From the NCBI GenBank assembly GCA_963693365.1, contig CAVNZM010000097.1, positions 1 to 8,689 on the forward strand: DNA of 8,689 bases. The letters run 5' to 3'. The first letter of the stretch is position 1, and every line of letters begins with the position of its first letter. Source of the stretch: Amoebidium appalachense (lineage: Eukaryota; Protista; Ichthyosporea). A program made the translations under genes and the position numbers. Below, in pieces: positions 1 to 8,689 of the stretch. A model generated the notes under the pieces. That model made no database searches, was not told the origin of the DNA, and worked only from the letters and a program-made list of their open reading frames with translations.

Positions 1-36
1 TCTCGCCCCCTCCTCCCTTCTTCTTACTCTAAGCTT
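1..36 (+). repeat. Left terminal inverted repeat (pairs with 7671-7706)
   Basis: tctcgccccctcc tcccttcttcttactctaagctt vs the reverse complement of 7671-7706, tctcgccccctcc ctctctactctttctctaggctt. First 13 bp identical; 28/36 identical ungapped. Confidence 0.85.
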
Positions 37-103
37 GTAGGGTAGGGAGGTGTAGATTCTACCATAGTTGGGTAGAGTTGAGATCTGGGACCCTAGTTTA
101 GGG

Positions 104-170
104 TTTCCGAGTGGCCGTCTTGGATTTCCGAGTGGCCGTCTTGGATTTCAGAGTGGCCGTCTTGGATTTC
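104..170. repeat. 21-bp tandem repeat x3 plus a partial copy (TTTCCGAGTGGCCGTCTTGGA)
   Basis: Units start at 104, 125 and 146, with a partial at 167. One substitution (c->a) in copy 3. Confidence 0.95.
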
Positions 171-459
171 ATGCACCAATTTAGGAAATTGATAAAAATA
201 TTAAATTGTAATTAACAAGTTTATAAGGGAAAATAAGGGTAAATAGGTTTTAAATTCTTGAGACAGACGTGACTAATCTGAAATTAGAGTTTTAGCCGAT
301 CAGGGACTGGAATTTATGAATTTTATAAGAATCTTAAATAGGTATTAAACATATTTCTTTTAACAATAGTTAACCTAGTACTCTTTGAGTGGAGACGTAT
401 TTTGGTTAATTCATTTGATTCATGAGTCTAATCTCTTATAGGTTGGAGCACCGCGAAAG

Positions 460-479
460 TTCCGTAGGCTTCCGTAGGT
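460..479. repeat. Short direct repeat TTCCGTAGG x2
   Basis: ttccgtaggc ttccgtaggt, 10-bp period. Confidence 0.7.
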
Positions 480-524
480 ACCAACTTCTGCTCTACTTAT
501 TTATCTAGTTTCTGTTAGGAATAT

Positions 525-960
525 AAGATGGAATTAAGCAATGTAACAACAAATAATGCAACCAATCGACACAAGACGATCTGAGATGAAACCAATATGG
601 AATTAAGCAATGTAACAATAAGTAACGCAATAAACTTATACTAGACAATCCAAGATGTAATCAAGCAAGGAAGCAAGGTAGTAATAATTAATAAACAACA
701 AAATACAGCACAATGGTACGAAATGAAGGCATGCATGCAAGCAATGTAACTACAAGCCATTCACAAATCTATACTAGACAATACGAGATGTAATCAAGAT
801 GGAATTAAGTAATGTAACAACAAACTTACCCTAGACGATACGAGATGGAATCTAGCAATGTAACAACAAGGAACTTAACAAACTTATACTAGACAATACG
901 AGATGGAATCTAGATGAAACCAAGCAATAAGCCTCCACAAGACGAGATGGAACCCATAAA
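525..960. repeat. A-rich degenerate mosaic repeat (modules AGATGGAATTAAGCAATGTAACAACAA and ACTTATACTAGACAATACGAGATG)
   Basis: 'gcaatgtaac'-type motifs recur near 538, 607, 741, 809 and 855. 'tatactagacaat' recurs near 637, 770 and 885. Confidence 0.85.
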
Positions 961-984
961 ACATAAAGATACAAGTGTAAATAA

Positions 985-1215
985 CAAGATACAATGATAC
1001 AAATGGAAATAACAATAAGCCGCAATAAGACGAAAAGGTAATGATACAATGGTATAAATGGAAGCGGCAATGGTACAAGGATACTAGGGTATAAATGGAA
1101 GCGGCAATGATACAATGATACAAGGGTATAAATGGAAGCAGTAATGTTACAATGGTATAAGGATACAACTGGTAGCAGTATGATCTAATGATACAAGTGG
1201 AAGCAGTAATAATAC
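985..1215. repeat. Degenerate tandem repeat GGTATAAATGGAAGC(G/A)GCAATG(A/G)TACAA
   Basis: 'gtataaatggaagc' occurs near 1052, 1089 and 1126, with diverged copies near 1000 and 1195. Confidence 0.85.
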
Positions 1216-1412
1216 AAATAGAAGAAACAAGACACAATCAGATGAATGAAAACAACGAGATGAAAGTCTTAAACCAAAAATGACATAATACAACGATACG
1301 AGATTGAAGCAAGCAGGCTATTAAGCAAGTGAGCAACAAATAATAAGTAAGAACATAAATGAAACAAGATGTAAAGAAATAAAGCAAGTAACAATTTGAT
1401 TTAAAATGAAAG

Positions 1413-1475
1413 TAAGTAAGTGATGAAAGCCATAAAGAAAGCAAGTAAGCGATGAAAGCCATAAAGGAAGTAAGC
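1413..1475. repeat. ~29-bp direct repeat AAGTAAG(T/C)GATGAAAGCCATAAAG x2
   Basis: Two near-identical adjacent copies plus a partial third (aagtaagc). Confidence 0.8.
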
Positions 1476-1724
1476 AATCATATTATTAGCATAACCTCTC
1501 CAAGCCGAAAGGACTTTTATCATTTTCCCCAAGTACCACTTATTTTGACACTCATATCCTGTACTCAGAACACTATTGATTATTGCATGCAAGAGCACCA
1601 CTGATTTCTGCATGATCACAATTTCTTCTTGCACCCCTGTTATTTATGTGTGCCTGGCCTACCGTGCGTGGTCACAATTTCTTCATGCATTCCTGTTATT
1701 CATACGCGCCCATATTCGATCTAT

Positions 1725-1895
1725 GCACTTATGCTCTACCATGCACGAGAAACTCGTTAACATCGATGATCCATTTATATTCAAAAAAGCTAAATAATAT
1801 TTATGATACGGAACCAGGGCCTAATAGCTCAGCTATGCTTCCCAAGGATCAGCTATTACAGGATTGTCAAAATGTATATATAAACACTCATGAGC
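1725..1895 (+). repeat. Inverted copy of the block at ~4535-4704 (and ~3645-3768)
   Basis: gcacttatgctctaccatgcacgagaaactcgttaacatcgatgatcc...gctaaataatatttatgatacggaaccagggcctaatagct aligns with the reverse complement of 4600-4704. Similarity continues to tgtatatataaaca (~1873-1886) vs tgtttatgtataca (~4543-4556). Flanking 1545-1720 also matches the 3150-5050 motif family in reverse. Confidence 0.9.
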
Positions 1896-2076
1896 ATTAC
1901 TAATTTATGTTATACACTTTGCATTTCCAAAGTACCACTGACTTATGTCATACACTTAGAGTACCATTAATTTTGGTACTTCTGTTATTCATGCGCCCAT
2001 ACTATGTACTCGCATGCGCACCAATGCTATGTTCTCGCAGAGTTCTTACTACTCTAACAGTACGAGAGTTTCAGTA

Positions 2077-2132
2077 GAGCTTTCTCGCTAAGAGAAAAGT
2101 CTTATGTTTTGTCCTCATACGACGATAAGCTC
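2077..2132. repeat. Double-hairpin element, copy 1 (56 bp)
   Basis: gagctttctcgctaagagaaaagtcttatgttttgtcctcatacgacgataagctc. Confidence 0.85.
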
Positions 2133-2239
2133 GTTTGGATTCGCAAGGCTGTTTTATAATCCAATAGATAATATTTATGCTACGAAATGAAAGCTTGTTA
2201 ACTTTAATTAGGGGATCTGATGGGTATTAAACAATAGCT

Positions 2240-2413
2240 TAAGCTAGCTTGGGATGGTATCCTTGTGCATAAGGCGAATTGTGTAAGCTAGCTTGGGATG
2301 GTATCTTTGTACATAAGGCGATTTGCCTAGAACAGCTTGGGATGATATCGCTGTACCCAAGACGAATTGCCTAAATTAGCTTTAGATGATATCTCTGTGC
2401 ACAAGATGAATTG
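2240..2413. repeat. 44-bp tandem repeat x4, progressively diverged
   Basis: 'agctt(g/t)(g/a)gatg(g/a)tatc...tgt.c..aag..ga.ttg' starts at 2246, 2290, 2334 and 2378, an exact 44-bp period. Confidence 0.9.
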
Positions 2414-2442
2414 GTAATCTGGTGAGCCCAAGAGTCTTTCTT

Positions 2443-2499
2443 GAGCTTTTTCGCTAAGAGAAAAGTCTTATGCTCTCATCATCATACGATGACAAGCTC
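2443..2499. repeat. Double-hairpin element, copy 2 (57 bp)
   Basis: gagctttttcgctaagagaaaagtcttatgctctcatcatcatacgatgacaagctc. A truncated, diverged copy follows at ~2518-2546. Confidence 0.85.
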
Positions 2500-2624
2500 G
2501 TTGTGAGAGTCTCGCTTGAGCCTTATCGCTAAGGAACTATCTTATGTTTTTGGAAAATTCTCCTTACTCGTACAAGGTGAATTTGGACTCTGAGGAGCCC
2601 AAGCTTGTTGTGAGAGTCTCTAAA

Positions 2625-2681
2625 GAGCTTTCTCGCTAAGAGAAGAGTCTTATGCTCTTGTCAGCATACGACGACAAGCTC
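2625..2681. repeat. Double-hairpin element, copy 3 (57 bp)
   Basis: gagctttctcgctaagagaagagtcttatgctcttgtcagcatacgacgacaagctc. Confidence 0.85.
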
Positions 2682-2828
2682 GTCTAGAACTCGTAACTCG
2701 CCGATGTCTTCTGGTGAACTATCTCTTGATAGATTGTTTATAGGTGGAAGGTCTCTTGGAGTAGTCGTCATGCCTTGATGTAAACTCTCTTATGCTTTGG
2801 TTATCTGGTAATCCCAAAAATCTCTGAA

Positions 2829-2885
2829 GAGCCTTCTCGCTAAGAGAAGAGTCTTATGCTCTTGTCATCATACGACAACAAGCTC
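2829..2885. repeat. Double-hairpin element, copy 4 (57 bp)
   Basis: gagccttctcgctaagagaagagtcttatgctcttgtcatcatacgacaacaagctc. Confidence 0.85.
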
Positions 2886-3059
2886 GTTATGCACTCGCAA
2901 CTCATTGAGAACTCGCATGCGGAACTAGGTTAATTATGAGCTTTTGGTTACTTACACGCTTGTAAACTGGTTTGACAATTAATGGAGCTAAATTAACTGT
3001 GAACTGTTGATTACTTAGACTTTCGAGAACTAGTTAGATGGTTAGCTTGTATTAATATA

Positions 3060-3117
3060 TCGCCAATGTGTCGCCAATGTGTTGCTATTGTGTCGCCTAG
3101 GTTAGGCAATGTGTCGT
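3060..3117. repeat. 11-bp tandem repeat CGCCAATGTGT (degenerate)
   Basis: cgccaatgtgt cgccaatgtgt tgctattgtgt cgcc...ggcaatgtgtcg. Confidence 0.8.
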
Positions 3118-3269
3118 CATTAATGTGTGTATTTTAATTTTAGGGTATATGCTCTTAGATACATGGCATGAAGAGGATCGTGCATGAATCAGTGAGGTTC
3201 TTGGGAACATAACATAAGGCATTAATGATTGGAACTCTTAGATACATAGCATGAGTGCATAAAACAATT

Positions 3270-3780
3270 ATAATCATGAAGTAATCAGTGGTATTCTTGG
3301 GTACATGAATCAATTTGGATCATGGAGAACCTTATCGCTCTTAGGTCTCATGATCGTTATGGCAGTTCATAGTTCTTCATAGTTCTTTATAGATCTCATA
3401 GCTATTACTGTATACTTATTCGTAATCATGCATAGATTTCATGGGAGTTCATAGTTCTTCATAAATCTCATAGTAATCCATAGTTCTTCACGGTAGTTTA
3501 TGAATCTCATTACTATTGATGTACATTTCTTTGCAATCATATATGAGTTTTATTGTTATTTATGTAAGGGTCTTATTGTTACTTAGGGTTCACATGCCTG
3601 TCCATGTATGCTTTTTAGCTATAATGTAATAGACAACTCTTAGTCATCATGGATGAGCTACTAGGCCCTAATTTTGTACCATGAATATTATTTAGCTTTC
3701 TTAAATATCGGGGGGGGGGGGATCAGCGATGTTAATGAGTTACTCGTGCATATCATAACATAAGTACATGAATCAATAGG
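3270..3780 (+). repeat. Large direct-repeat block, copy A (copy B ~4295-4715, partial copy C ~4950-5045)
   Basis: A and B share the same order: atcatg.agtaatcagt...ttcttgggtaca.gaatcaatttggatc...gctcttaggt, then the catagttctt decamer array, then tcatggat.agcta.taggccct...cgatgttaatgagt...gtgcata...cataagtaca.gaatcaat. Confidence 0.85.
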
Positions 3781-3800
3781 TATCGGGGATGAATACATAG

Positions 3801-3900
3801 CATGAGTGCGAATGCCTGAATCAAATGTGGTTATGTATGATATGAGTGCGAATGCATGAATCAAAGGTGATTATGTATGACATGAGTGCGAATACAGGAA
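3801..3900. repeat. 40-bp tandem repeat x2.5
   Basis: (c/t)atgagtgcgaatgc(c/a)tgaatcaaa(t/g)gtg(g/a)ttatgtatga starts at 3801 and 3841, with a partial at 3881. Confidence 0.9.
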
Positions 3901-4294
3901 TTAATTATGATTACGCACGGTATTGCATGAATATATGAATAACAGAAGTGTAAAATTTAATGAGGGCTCTGGGTGTATGATATAAGTATATAAATTAAGG
4001 GGGGGGGGGGGCTCTAGGTATATGCCAAGAGTACATGGCATTAATACGCATGCGAGTACATAGTATGGGCGCATGAATAGCATAAGTATATGAATCGATT
4101 GAGATCGTGCAGGAATCCGGGGTGCTTTTGAGTATATGCAGGCCTTACATAAATGCAGGAAGAAATTGTGATCGTGCAGGAATTAATGGTGTTCTTGGAT
4201 ATATCAATCAATTATGATCATGCAAGACATAACAAGGAATGCATAGATAAAGAGTGATCGCGTATGACATGAGTGTGGCTGCAGGGATCATTTA

Positions 4295-4715
4295 TAATCA
4301 TGCAGTAATCAGTAGAATTCTTGGGTACAAGAATCAATTTGGATCGTAGACAACCTTGTTGCTCTTAGGTTTAGTGACAATTCATAAATTTCATAACAGT
4401 TCATAGTTTTTCATGGATCTCATAGCAGTCCATAATTTTTCATGGATCTTATAACAGTTCATAGTTCTTCATAGTTCTTCATGGTAGTTCATAGATTTCA
4501 GGGCATTTCATGCATCTCATGGCAGTTCATAGATTTCATAGCTGTTTATGTATACATCTTAACACTAATGTAATAAACAAGTCTTAACGATCATGGATAA
4601 GCTATTAGGCCCTGATTTCGTATCATAAATGTTGTTTAGCTTATTTGAATTAAAATGAATCATCGATGTTAATGAGTCCCTTGTGCATAGCAGAGCATAA
4701 GTACAAGAATCAATT
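4295..4715 (+). repeat. Large direct-repeat block, copy B
   Basis: See copy A. Contains a 10-bp-period CATAGTTCTT/CATGGATCT/CATAGATTT array at ~4383-4541. Confidence 0.85.
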
Positions 4716-5087
4716 GTGATCGTACACGGTAAGACATGAGTGTATAAAGAAATTGTGATCGTGCAGAAATCAATTTGGATCGTGCAGGAATCCGTGATGT
4801 TCTTGAGTGCATAGATAATAGAAGTGCTTAAATTAATTATGATTGCGCACAGAATGCCATGAATACATAGTATTGATGCGCACAGGAATAACATGCGTGT
4901 AAGGATCAATAGGGATACTGACGAAGTACATAAGTGCAGAGATCAATTTGGATCATGCAGTAATCAGTGATGTTCTTGGGTACAAGAATCAATTGGGATA
5001 GGGAACAGCCATAATGCTCTTAAGTCTTATAGCTGTAGATACATTCATCACATTTGAATCAATTCAAGAAAAAGGAGCTTAGATGCG

Positions 5088-5200
5088 TCTTCCATTTGTC
5101 TTTCACCTATTGATACATTTATGCCTCTTATAATCAATCCAAGAGATAGGTGTTCATATGCTTCCTTCATTTGTCTTTTACCTATTGACACATTCATTTC
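5088..5200. repeat. ~30-bp direct repeat x2 (CATTTGTCTTT(C/T)ACCTATTGA(T/C)ACATT)
   Basis: Copies at ~5093-5119 and ~5168-5194. Confidence 0.8.
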
Positions 5201-5811
5201 TTATAATATATTCTTTCGTCTCTTACTAATAAATCATGCCTCCGAACCATATCTTCATATAACATACTTTCTCTAGCTTACCGATTTTCAAATTGCTTCT
5301 TGAAAGTTCTCATCGCAACAAAAATAGATTAATATAATAGTGAGGAAATCCTTTACTTTTCACTCTAAATGATTGGTGCAAAACCTGAAAATTTAGGGTT
5401 CAGGATGTCGAAAGCAAAGGGAGGGGTACTTTTTCAAAACTGCGCCCATCTAAAGGAAATAACTTTCCGTAGATAGTGATAGAACTATAGAACAAAATAT
5501 TTAATTGCTTCATAGAATTAACTTATCAAACCTTAATTTGATTTAGTTAAACAAGGCATGTGTACCCCTATATACATATGGTCCGATAAAGCACTAATTC
5601 CCCCTATAAATTAGCGTCTAAGTGATCCGAGTGATCTCATTGATCGACTCTCCTATGTCACGAAGCAAACTTTATCATCTTCCTTTTATAAAGCTCTTAA
5701 ATCTTTTTTCTATAAAGTTATAATAATACTAGTTAGTATGTTTTACAACGTCTAGACCTATTAACTTTCAGTTATTCCCTTTTTTATATACACTAGATGA
5801 ATGAATGTCTC

Positions 5812-5858
5812 CTCTGTTTTACCAGAGAAAGTTTTACCTCTCAACTAGGAGAGGTGAA
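5812..5858 (-). terminator. Tandem stem-loops just 3' of the rps3 stop (putative transcript end or processing signal)
   Basis: ACCTCTC-aactag-GAGAGGT (5836-5855, perfect 7-bp stem) lies ~15 nt downstream of the stop. CTCTG-ttttac-CAGAG (5812-5827) is adjacent. Function is inferred from position only. Confidence 0.5.
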
Positions 5859-5869
5859 GTTACTATTTA

Positions 5870-7369
5870 TTAACGAAGAAAAATCTTTAATCCAATAGCA
5901 CCTAATTTAGTAAAGATAGTAGAAGAAGAATATTGAGAAGGTATAGTTAAAGAAGATAAGGAAAGATTACCATAGTGCGCTGAGAAGTGTTTAGCACGAG
6001 CAGATTTACCACCACGACCTGGAAGTCTTCCTGAAAGATAAAGACGAATACCTTTAAATTTAAGCAATGATAATTCCATAAGTAATAAATGATCTAAAAT
6101 ACTTTTTAAAACTAGAGAAATAAAGTAAGATTTAGCATAAAGAGTAGATAAAGAAGAAAGTTGTAGAAATAAAGTATAAATGGAAAAAGCGGAAGAAACT
6201 AATTGAATAAAGAAAGGATGAAGTTTAAAATAGAGAAGAACTTTTGTAATAGCAGAAGTAGAAATAGTAGAAGAAAGAGGTTGCATAACTAAAGTAGACT
6301 TCTGGAGAGAAAATAAGTATAAATTTAAGAGATTAAAATTTGAAGAAGTAATAGGTGTAGAAGAAGTCCCAACTACTTTAACTTTGAGAAGATTAATATG
6401 CTTATTAGTATGTAAATTGGTATGAGTCGTAAAAATAGTATTACAATTTAATGAAGGAGAAACTGGATAGGCTTTAACAATATAAATTAATAAACTAGTA
6501 ATTCAAAGTAAATAAATACGTCTAAAGTGTTTTAATCCAATTCAATCGTAATGTTGTAATGGCTGTAAGAAATCTAACCCTTTGTTTAGATTTTTATATT
6601 TATTAATAACCGTATTGAATATTCTTTTATATTCCTTTCTTTTTAAAATTCATGATGTAATATAACGCCCAATTAATTGTGAACTATGAATTCAAGGTTC
6701 AATTTGTTGTACATGAATTATAATATTTACATCTTTCACATATATAAGTAAATTTTCATATATTGTATTTAAAACCCTTTGTAAATCTTGTTTTCTTCTA
6801 CCTCGTGGATTGTCCCTAAGTTCGTTACTAACTAAACTTGTTTTGTATGCAGTTTTATTTCATAATTTATCTTTCTTTACTTTTTTTCTATTTATTTTGT
6901 TTTTATATTCTAAAAATGTTACTTTTCGTAATCGTTTTACTTCATTAAGCGAACTTTCATTAGAAGAATCTAATTGTTTATTATTATTCTTAGTATCAAT
7001 TATATTTTTAATATTATCATTTCATCCTTTAATTACAATTTGATCAAGCTGTAAAGTTATATTTTTTAATCTTTCGGATTTCTTTTTCATACCTAGTATT
7101 AAATGTTTAATTCCAATTAAAGAGTTTCCTTTTTTAATTGGTTCGACTTCTTTTTCTACTTGAATAATGATACTCATATCTTTTATTTTTCTTTTAATTA
7201 TAATTTCACCTACGCTATACCCTTGTGCTTCCATTGTTCCTTTTATATATTCTCTAATTAACATGTCTCTATATAAAAGTGTTCCATATTCTGTTTCAGG
7301 GCATTTTCATATCACTCTATAATTTCTTTGTGCACTTAATTTACTTTTATTTATATTTATTCTATTCAT
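5870..7369 (-). CDS. rps3: Mitochondrial-type ribosomal protein S3 (uS3m), 499 aa, TGA=Trp (table 4-like), with a long central insertion
   Basis: Hand translation: ATG at 7369-7367 (in-frame TAG upstream at 7384-7382) runs with no TAA/TAG to TAA at 5872-5870, followed by a second TAA at 5869-5867. In-frame TGA codons at + positions 7307, 7022, 6860, 6692, 6650, 6542 and 6503. N-terminal 'VIWKCPETEYGTLLYRDMLIREYIKG' fits the uS3 W...Y..LL..D..IR.YI motif, with the W encoded by TGA. C-terminal 'KGIRLYLSGRLPGRGGKSARAK...YGNLSL...QYSSSTIFTKLGAIGLKIFL' is the uS3 C-terminal domain of mitochondrial type. Confidence 0.9.
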
Positions 7370-7670
7370 CCTTTCTCTTTCCTACTATTGAATAATTTAA
7401 TTCCATTCCCAAATACTCTTATCTTGAATGGTACCTAATATTAAATTATTTAATTCTACTCCTATCATAACATTGAATAATTTTATTCTACTCCTAATGT
7501 AATATTAAGATAGCACTAAATTCCCTTCTATCTGTAATAAATAAGTTAATTAAATATTTAAGGTTTTTATTGATATCATAAATCCAACTCCTGATCTGCT
7601 AAAACTCCGATTTTGATAATTTACCATTATCTGGATTTAGGATTGTAGTTATCATCTTATATCGTGACAG

Positions 7671-7706
7671 AAGCCTAGAGAAAGAGTAGAGAGGGAGGGG
7701 GCGAGA
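7671..7706 (-). repeat. Right terminal inverted repeat (pairs with 1-36)
   Basis: aagcctagagaaagagtagagagggagggggcgaga is an imperfect reverse complement of bases 1-36. It lies about 40 bp before the telomeric tract. Confidence 0.85.
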
Positions 7707-7746
7707 TGAAATAACTAGACTGGGCCCCTGGGAACTTTGAACTCTC

Positions 7747-8352
7747 AAACCCTAAACCTAAACCCTAAACCTAAACCTAAACCTAAACCCTAAACCTAAA
7801 CCTAAACCTAAACCTAAACCTAAACCTAAACCCTAACCCTAAACCTAAACCATAAACCTAAAACCTATAAACCTAAACCTAAGCCTAAACCTAAGGCACC
7901 TAAACCCTAAACCACACTAAACCTAAACCAAAAATAAGCCTAAACCCTAAAAACCTAACCCTAAACCTAAACCTAAACCTAAAACCTAAACCTAAACCTA
8001 AACCTAAACCTAAACGAAACCTAAAAAAAGCCTAAACCTAAACCTAAACCAAAAAAATAAGCCTAAACCTAAACCCCTAAACCTAAACCTAAGCCTAACC
8101 CTAAACCTAAACCAAAAGGTAAACCTAAACCCTAAACCCTAAACCCTAAACCCTAAAACCTAAACCCTAAACCCTAAACCCTAAACCCTAAACCCTAAAC
8201 CCTAAACCCTAAACCCTAAACCCCTAAACCCTAAACCCTAAACCCTAAACCCTAAACCCTAAACCCTAAACCCTAAACCCTAAACCCTAAACCCTAAACC
8301 CTAAACCCTAAACCCTAAACCCTAAAGCCTAAACCCTAAACCCTAACCCTAA
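7747..8352 (+). repeat. Telomeric repeat tract, C-rich strand on +: mainly CCTAAA with variants (7747-~8126), near-perfect CCCTAAA (~8127-8340), ending in CCCTAA x2
   Basis: Directly visible. The reverse complement is TTTAGG/TTTAGGG; TTTAGGG is the Arabidopsis-type telomere repeat. Confidence 0.95.
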
Positions 8353-8355
8353 CCC

Positions 8356-8467
8356 CACACAAACACACACACACAAACACACACACGCAAACACGCACCC
8401 ACAAAAACAGAAACACATACACGACGGTCACACCACACACAGAAACACAAACACACACACAGACACA
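8356..8467. repeat. Imperfect (CA)n microsatellite
   Basis: acacaaacacacacacacaaacacacacacgc... interrupted CA runs. Confidence 0.9.
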
Positions 8468-8470
8468 CGG

Positions 8471-8478
8471 TCTCTCTT

Positions 8479-8554
<76 letters not shown>
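8471..8554. repeat. (CT)n microsatellite, followed by C17 (8573-8589) and A10 (8590-8599)
   Basis: Directly visible. Confidence 0.95.
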
Positions 8555-8559
<5 letters not shown>

Positions 8560-8689
8560 CCCCCTCTCCCCTCCCCCCCCCCCCCCCCCAAAAAAAAAAC
8601 TGCAATTGAACACCCAAACGGAAGCTTCAATTCAGACCCAGAGACATTATTCTTTTTCCAGCGCCAACTGCGAGGTAATGTAGAGTATG

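Follow-up and report, generated by a model that had tools for sequence, protein, structure and literature searches.

A probable near-complete linear mitochondrial chromosome of the Amoebidium type, with rps3 as its only gene found

Can a stretch of DNA with one recognizable gene and inverted ends represent a whole mitochondrial chromosome, and to what kind of genome would it belong? The question is raised by the 8,689-nt stretch analyzed here (the window), the first 7,706 bp of which were proposed in a preliminary description to be a complete linear mitochondrial minichromosome that carries only rps3 and is capped by terminal inverted repeats (TIRs). Contig depth and shared ends support the proposal that this unit is one of the chromosomes of a linear mitochondrial genome that is highly fragmented and rich in repeats. 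Positions 1 to ~7726 probably make up almost all of a linear mitochondrial chromosome from Amoebidium or a close relative among the ichthyosporeans, and the unit very likely works like an Amoebidium-type mitochondrial chromosome. The gene and the inverted ends of the earlier account are confirmed and its boundaries are not: the right end lies near 7726 and the left end is likely clipped by ~20 nt. A 0.95-kb tail to the right of the unit had been left out.

The rps3 gene (uS3m) occupies positions 5870–7369 of the reverse strand and is directed inward from the right end. It is the single long credible frame in genetic code table 4, extending from stop to stop over 5870–7381 on the reverse strand, with the first ATG at 7369 and the stop codon at 5870, and encodes 499 amino acids. 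The frame is intact with table 4 only. Its tryptophan codons are seven TGA and no TGG, and the GC fraction at third codon positions is 0.12. The gene is thereby as previously described: intact, with TGA read as tryptophan, close to one end, and pointing into the unit.

The 499-residue product contains the N-terminal and C-terminal S3 domains of the uS3 family. NCBIfam model TIGR01009 (rpsC) matches it in two stretches with an E-value of 3e-13, under the curated cutoff, and the Pfam domain Ribosomal_S3_C matches with an E-value of 5e-4, under its cutoff. A profile built from Rps3 and 10 of its 36 matches retrieves uS3 chains from the PDB (best E-value 2.5e-11). The N-terminus of Rps3, from the methionine onward, aligns with four full-length relatives of 652–696 residues at 30–32% identity, and the C-terminus is also aligned with full-length relatives. 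The closest match is an 89-residue fragment, 64–66% identical over 64–67 residues. Very long Rps3-like proteins (P0002–P0005 and P0039; 652–749 residues) occur in ENA and Logan contigs, one of them on a contig of 55.9 kb. The AlphaFold model of Rps3 is of low confidence (predicted local distance difference test score 54.5) and adds nothing to the assignment. A Foldseek search with the model gave no matches at E ≤ 0.001, and its top rows were nonetheless ribosome chains. A protein atlas lookup of Rps3 returned no result.

The sole gene found in the unit is rps3, in agreement with the earlier claim. ARAGORN with default settings predicts no tRNA in the unit, an Rfam scan of the unit gives no matches, and neither does a Pfam scan of seven other table-4 open reading frames among the 35 listed. 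A glycine tRNA proposed by relaxed ARAGORN at 27–104 or 79–151 overlaps the end and tandem repeats and was rejected as noise, and 22 calls at -ps70 were dismissed likewise. Coding sequence makes up 19.4% of the unit, and self-BLAST shows 59% of the non-coding DNA to be repeated within it, which accords with the earlier estimate of about 80% non-genic, repeat-rich DNA.

The ends of the unit form inverted arms. As reported before, positions 1–36 and 7671–7706 agree at 28 of 36 positions (78%) and share a perfect core of 13 nt, present once per end. A core of this kind was reached in one of 1,000 dinucleotide-Markov resamples. Within the unit, the end motif is confined to the two ends. A second inverted pair, 281–359 and 7536–7613, is 76% identical (E-value 4e-9).

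Part of the stretch is present in 20 of the 24 sequencing runs listed. Short-read contigs from five runs were compared: X1, X2, X4, and X7, which represent three samples (X1 and X2 belong to one), and X14. Depth summed over contigs, a measure that over-counts and is not copy number, reaches 33,334 in X1, 687,119 in X2, and 15,372 in X4 at positions 7704–7724, which is 202 times, ~123 times, and ~439 times the depth of the body, respectively. At the end motif, summed depth is ~120–440 times the value for the gene body, which means that the end is common to very many molecules, in accordance with the previous suggestion that other contigs should carry the terminal motif; many variant contigs contain it. 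We infer that the motif is shared by tens to hundreds of molecules.

The same profile locates the right boundary. In X1, summed depth along 7200–7800 rises from 165 to 27,012 at 7641–7661, peaks at 7704–7724, and falls more than tenfold to 2,498; X2 and X4 behave alike. In X1, X2, and X4, the high-depth motif ceases 1.2–1.6 nt past the start of the bin at 7725, which places the right end near 7726, not 7706. The common terminal motif extends over 7694–7726, and its outer limit is the likely physical end. The abrupt fall in depth at ~7726 fits a molecule end, a feature that contigs themselves cannot show. At 7721–7729, the shared end halts in the palindrome GGGCCC, after which comes one more C. 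Two X4 contigs extend past 7729 with a short sequence that differs from that of the window. A hairpin end folded back at the palindrome was considered and is unsupported, as there is no strand-switch joint among those listed.

The left boundary was deduced from contigs that overrun an end of 1–7775: 14 of 1,425 in X1, 3 of 2,405 in X2, 2 of 506 in X4, and 4 of 2,018 in X7. Contig alignments over 7200–7800 contain nothing beyond 7745, and four X1 contigs carry a flank resembling the left end (compared with the reverse complement of 1–45) as a loose end before 7694. We take the overrun end to be base 1. The left TIR at 1–36 of the forward strand, identified by the inverted-repeat search, is likely clipped by ~20 nt, and the molecule probably does not physically end at base 1.

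The body of the unit is evenly represented in the reads. All 30 bins of 1–7775 are covered in each of X1, X2, X4, and X7. Eight X1 pieces listed, 314–917 nt long, have depths of 146–176 and contain no differing letters and one gap overall. The depth of unique pieces along the unit is mostly 5,100–6,600 in X2 and 24–50 in X4. A mosaic of several smaller chromosomes, assembled through shared repeats into a 7.7-kb unit, might be suspected from the repeated share of the non-coding DNA, the many joints to other molecules, and the lack of a spanning contig. Such a mosaic is at odds with the similar depth of unique pieces throughout in each of the three runs, with the complete coverage of the bins in four of four runs, and with an end motif located solely at the two ends, and we give it hardly any probability.

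The reads also bear on the location of the unit. The X1 assembly comprises 16.8 million contig letters and that of X2 204.6 million, and the unit is still present at ~160-fold depth in X1. This depth in so small an assembly suggests a copy number far above the nuclear level, in line with an organelle-like depth for the unit. In run X7, C>T changes occur at 303 places and G>A changes at 169, and the run looks like a bisulfite-type conversion library. Among the 25 C>T places listed and checked, five lie in CpG and read T at full depth, which would fit unmethylated DNA. Unconverted X7 contigs of depth 7–12 lie beside converted ones of depth 1,900–2,700 at 443–932, 1409–1747, 2239–2520, and 4687–4982; either conversion failed in them, or they are copies that were protected or nuclear.

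The tail beyond the unit begins with a junction at 7727–7746, which is outside the high-depth motif and within which, past 7729, the two X4 contigs diverge from the window. A telomere-type array of 92 copies of the 7-bp repeat CCCTAAA spans 7747–8356 on the forward strand, where CCCTAAA occurs 37 times and TTTAGGG not at all. The array is noisy near the junction, with 6 perfect units and 29 six-mers before 8100, and clean after it (26 and 4). Runs of CA, CT, and C, identified from the sequence and a tandem-repeat search, and then ~90 nt of other sequence fill 8356–8689 of the forward strand; this part is likely nuclear subtelomere or read noise. A telomere that capped the unit would have its G-rich strand running outward. 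Addition of a telomere onto the unit is therefore rejected on account of the wrong strand. As the C-rich strand runs away from the unit, the array looks like the left-hand tip of a different chromosome. Most likely, the tail is a nuclear chromosome tip, and its end-to-end junction with the unit a product of chimerism in a long read or contig. The TTTAGGG-type array would give the nuclear telomere motif of an ichthyosporean host, provided that it is native to one. No report of this telomere type in ichthyosporeans was found in the literature searched, and the available part of PMC11244446 contains no mention of 'telomer' and describes no mitochondrial chromosomes. Nothing of relevance came from PMC3673629 or 10.64898/2026.07.21.739728.

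The join might instead be real: the tip of a nuclear chromosome could have captured a mitochondrial one (as nuclear mitochondrial DNA or through an end-to-end fusion), and the window would be that nuclear copy. The contig does run continuously into the telomere-type array and microsatellites, two of the four unconverted X7 contigs listed at 7–12-fold depth carry 5–9 differences, and a single-copy junction could escape notice among the contigs. Capture is nevertheless quite improbable. The body is nearly letter-identical to high-depth contigs, the rps3 frame is intact, and body depth appears far above nuclear in the comparison of X1 with X2. The join sits exactly at the shared natural end, and the array is noisiest beside it, as might be expected of the unpolished end of a read. 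Even if the join were real, a family of free chromosomes would still be needed to explain the depth. We consider the artificial joining of natural mitochondrial ends to nuclear telomeres a likely assembly artefact, which the window serves to flag.

The architecture that emerges has a known counterpart in Amoebidium parasiticum. Burger et al. 2003 is said to be the primary account of its mitochondrial DNA (mtDNA). Published chromosomes are reportedly up to about 8 kb in size. The finding is unsurprising, since this architecture has reportedly been in print since 2003. According to the available part of PMC7027106, A. parasiticum mtDNA encodes rps3, 4, and 13, uses UGA for tryptophan, is ~20% coding, and is spread over linear chromosomes numbering several hundred; the same part gives the extent of sequencing as ~65% and cites GenBank chromosomes such as AF538045 and AF538046. 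The accessible text of PMC2518934 describes for each chromosome inverted terminal repeats together with identically oriented 5' and 3' sequences, genes transcribed from the 5' toward the 3' block, and a replication mechanism of such ends that it calls unknown. The same general picture is given in the portions available of PMC7194472, PMC3268669, PMC8303319, PMC2151934, and PMC3546061.

The unit resembles A. parasiticum mtDNA in several of these respects. It carries a mitochondrial rps3 with UGA as tryptophan. Its coding fraction, for a single unit, is close to the published genome-wide value. An inverted terminal repeat is present at both ends, the left copy being likely clipped, and in three of three DNA runs summed depth indicates, indirectly, that very many chromosomes have the end motif in common. 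Different shared blocks lie inside the two ends. Distinct, identically oriented 5' and 3' sequences may be represented by two different high-depth blocks and by same-orientation joints, mostly with short sides.

The left, 3'-side subterminal block at 261–520, as delimited by bins, includes the repeat at 281–359 and is common to many other molecules, with a summed depth of 9,001 in X1 against ~160 on unique pieces, and of 359,544 in X2. The right, 5'-side subterminal block at 7590–7693 is likewise common to many other molecules, as indicated by its X1 depth at 7641–7661 and many variant contigs. In other contigs the two blocks are joined directly in window orientation, from 482 to 7592 in X1, X2, and X4, and from 484 to 7360 in X2 (side of 38 letters). 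These joints would fit small gene-less sister chromosomes, and their short sides may stem from repeats.

Two further shared segments flank rps3. A motif at 7367–7409 on the reverse strand, immediately upstream of the ATG, has a depth of 1,200–1,400 in X1 against 165 and is shared by many contigs with differing flanks, with loose ends to its left and right in X1, X2, and X14. It is a candidate translation or transcript 5' signal. The block that surrounds the rps3 stop codon and continues downstream, at 5461–5980 on the reverse strand by bin limits, has an X1 depth of ~2,600–2,700 and is a candidate 3' processing or termination signal. Two short hairpins there have a z-score of -1.3, which is not significant. 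Other contigs contain versions of 7215–7409, the rps3 5' region with its upstream motif, that have diverged by 10–28 differences, some with 6–7 gaps, and one such copy in X2 has a depth of 5,353, close to that of the unit's own. The copies are likely pseudogene fragments on sister chromosomes. Run X14, guessed to be RNA and possibly DNA, has exact contigs at 7215–7318, inside the coding region; it has no cover at 7515–7577 and 7662–7745 and no exact contig listed at 7319–7366, and was not used as evidence.

We hypothesize that the common terminal motif plays a role in end maintenance and replication. Starting at the right subterminal block, transcription of rps3 would proceed into the unit, and the shared motifs at the gene's start and stop would be signals for its expression. 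Small chromosomes that lack a gene, and broken copies of genes, may be products of recombination between shared blocks.

Several observations weigh against the assignment of the unit to an Amoebidium-type mitochondrial genome. A whole-protein search with Rps3 found no relatives at E ≤ 0.001. Scans of metagenome, viral, and genome contigs found no sister chromosomes with cox, cob, nad, atp, or rRNA genes; the five scans yielded 0, 1, 0, 0, and 0 loci. The sole locus, from the end-motif scan of metagenome contigs, was rejected as a chance match, situated at the end of an open reading frame on a gene-dense, bacterial-looking contig. No contig among the runs aligned spans the whole unit. The number of chromosomes is rough, as it derives from summed depth, and the sides of the 482-to-7592 joint are 18–26 letters long, which repeats could mimic. 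The contig alignment, in which repeats at 7740–7800 were skipped, covers the region of the tail junction in part. The likeness to A. parasiticum is one of traits, among which no difference was shown.

The same many-chromosome linear architecture could also belong to a lineage other than Amoebidium in which it is undescribed, as the preliminary description had suggested. No near-identical Rps3 is present among the candidates scored, and the telomere type is without a report for ichthyosporeans in the literature searched, both of which favor another lineage. The missing Rps3 match is expected, because a gene with TGA as tryptophan is fragmented in collections translated with table 11 and because A. 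parasiticum mtDNA is partly sequenced. The suggestion of an undescribed lineage gained no positive support, since every testable trait matches A. parasiticum (PMC7027106, PMC2518934).

Nor do other known systems provide a better fit. We know of no animal mtDNA with rps3. Calcaronean sponges (Leucosolenia, Petrobiona) have single-gene linear chromosomes with shared ends, 50–150 or more in number, like the unit; unlike it, they are not known to carry rps3 and, according to the available part of PMC5633667, lack TIRs, so that the comparison with calcareous sponges drawn previously fails and the unit does not belong with them. Multipartite linear mtDNAs of Hydra and cubozoans have inverted terminal repeats, and Hydra also has identically oriented 5' and 3' sequences, but these genomes are described in the accessible text of PMC2518934 and PMC3268669 as 2–8 compact, mostly multi-gene chromosomes without rps3. 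The mtDNA of Euglena gracilis is linear as well, with molecules of 5–8 kb, whereas the genes listed in the available part of PMC7194472 are nad1/4/5, cob, cox1–3, and rRNA pieces, without rps3. A source other than Amoebidium is therefore unlikely. It would imply a second, independent origin of hundreds of TIR-capped, roughly one-gene linear chromosomes, in a eukaryote with TTTAGGG telomeres, and we regard that as equally unlikely.

With the unit assigned to Amoebidium or a close relative, the near-complete chromosome, the defined end motif at 7694–7726, and the start and stop signals provide probes for the whole chromosome set. The same probes may serve tests of end structure and of copy control per chromosome. 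In the mostly non-subscription literature searched, no paper was found that gives the end sequences of Amoebidium, its complete set of chromosomes, or the same architecture in another ichthyosporean.

The remaining features of the unit are repeats. A 21-bp tandem repeat with 3.2 copies lies at 104–170 on the forward strand, as found by the tandem-repeat search. Self-comparison delimits a repeat-rich non-coding body at 492–5030, which has repeat families of 21–147 bp and is without tRNA, Rfam, or Pfam matches. The body contains an internal inverted duplication, 1568–2036 against 3242–4993, with up to 183 nt at 76% identity, and a further high-depth block at 2341–3120. Hairpin folding of the 60-nt repeat described below, the end motif, and the gene flanks gave a z-score below -2 in one of seven cases, and no structure is claimed. 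The dispersed ~60-nt repeat has five copies at 2064–2891 on the forward strand and is high-copy elsewhere in the same runs, with summed depths in the bin 2601–2860 of 6,257 in X1 and 465,101 in X2. It can be folded into two hairpins, with weak DNA-fold z-scores of -1.3 to -2.4 for four copies, and is possibly a small mobile element.

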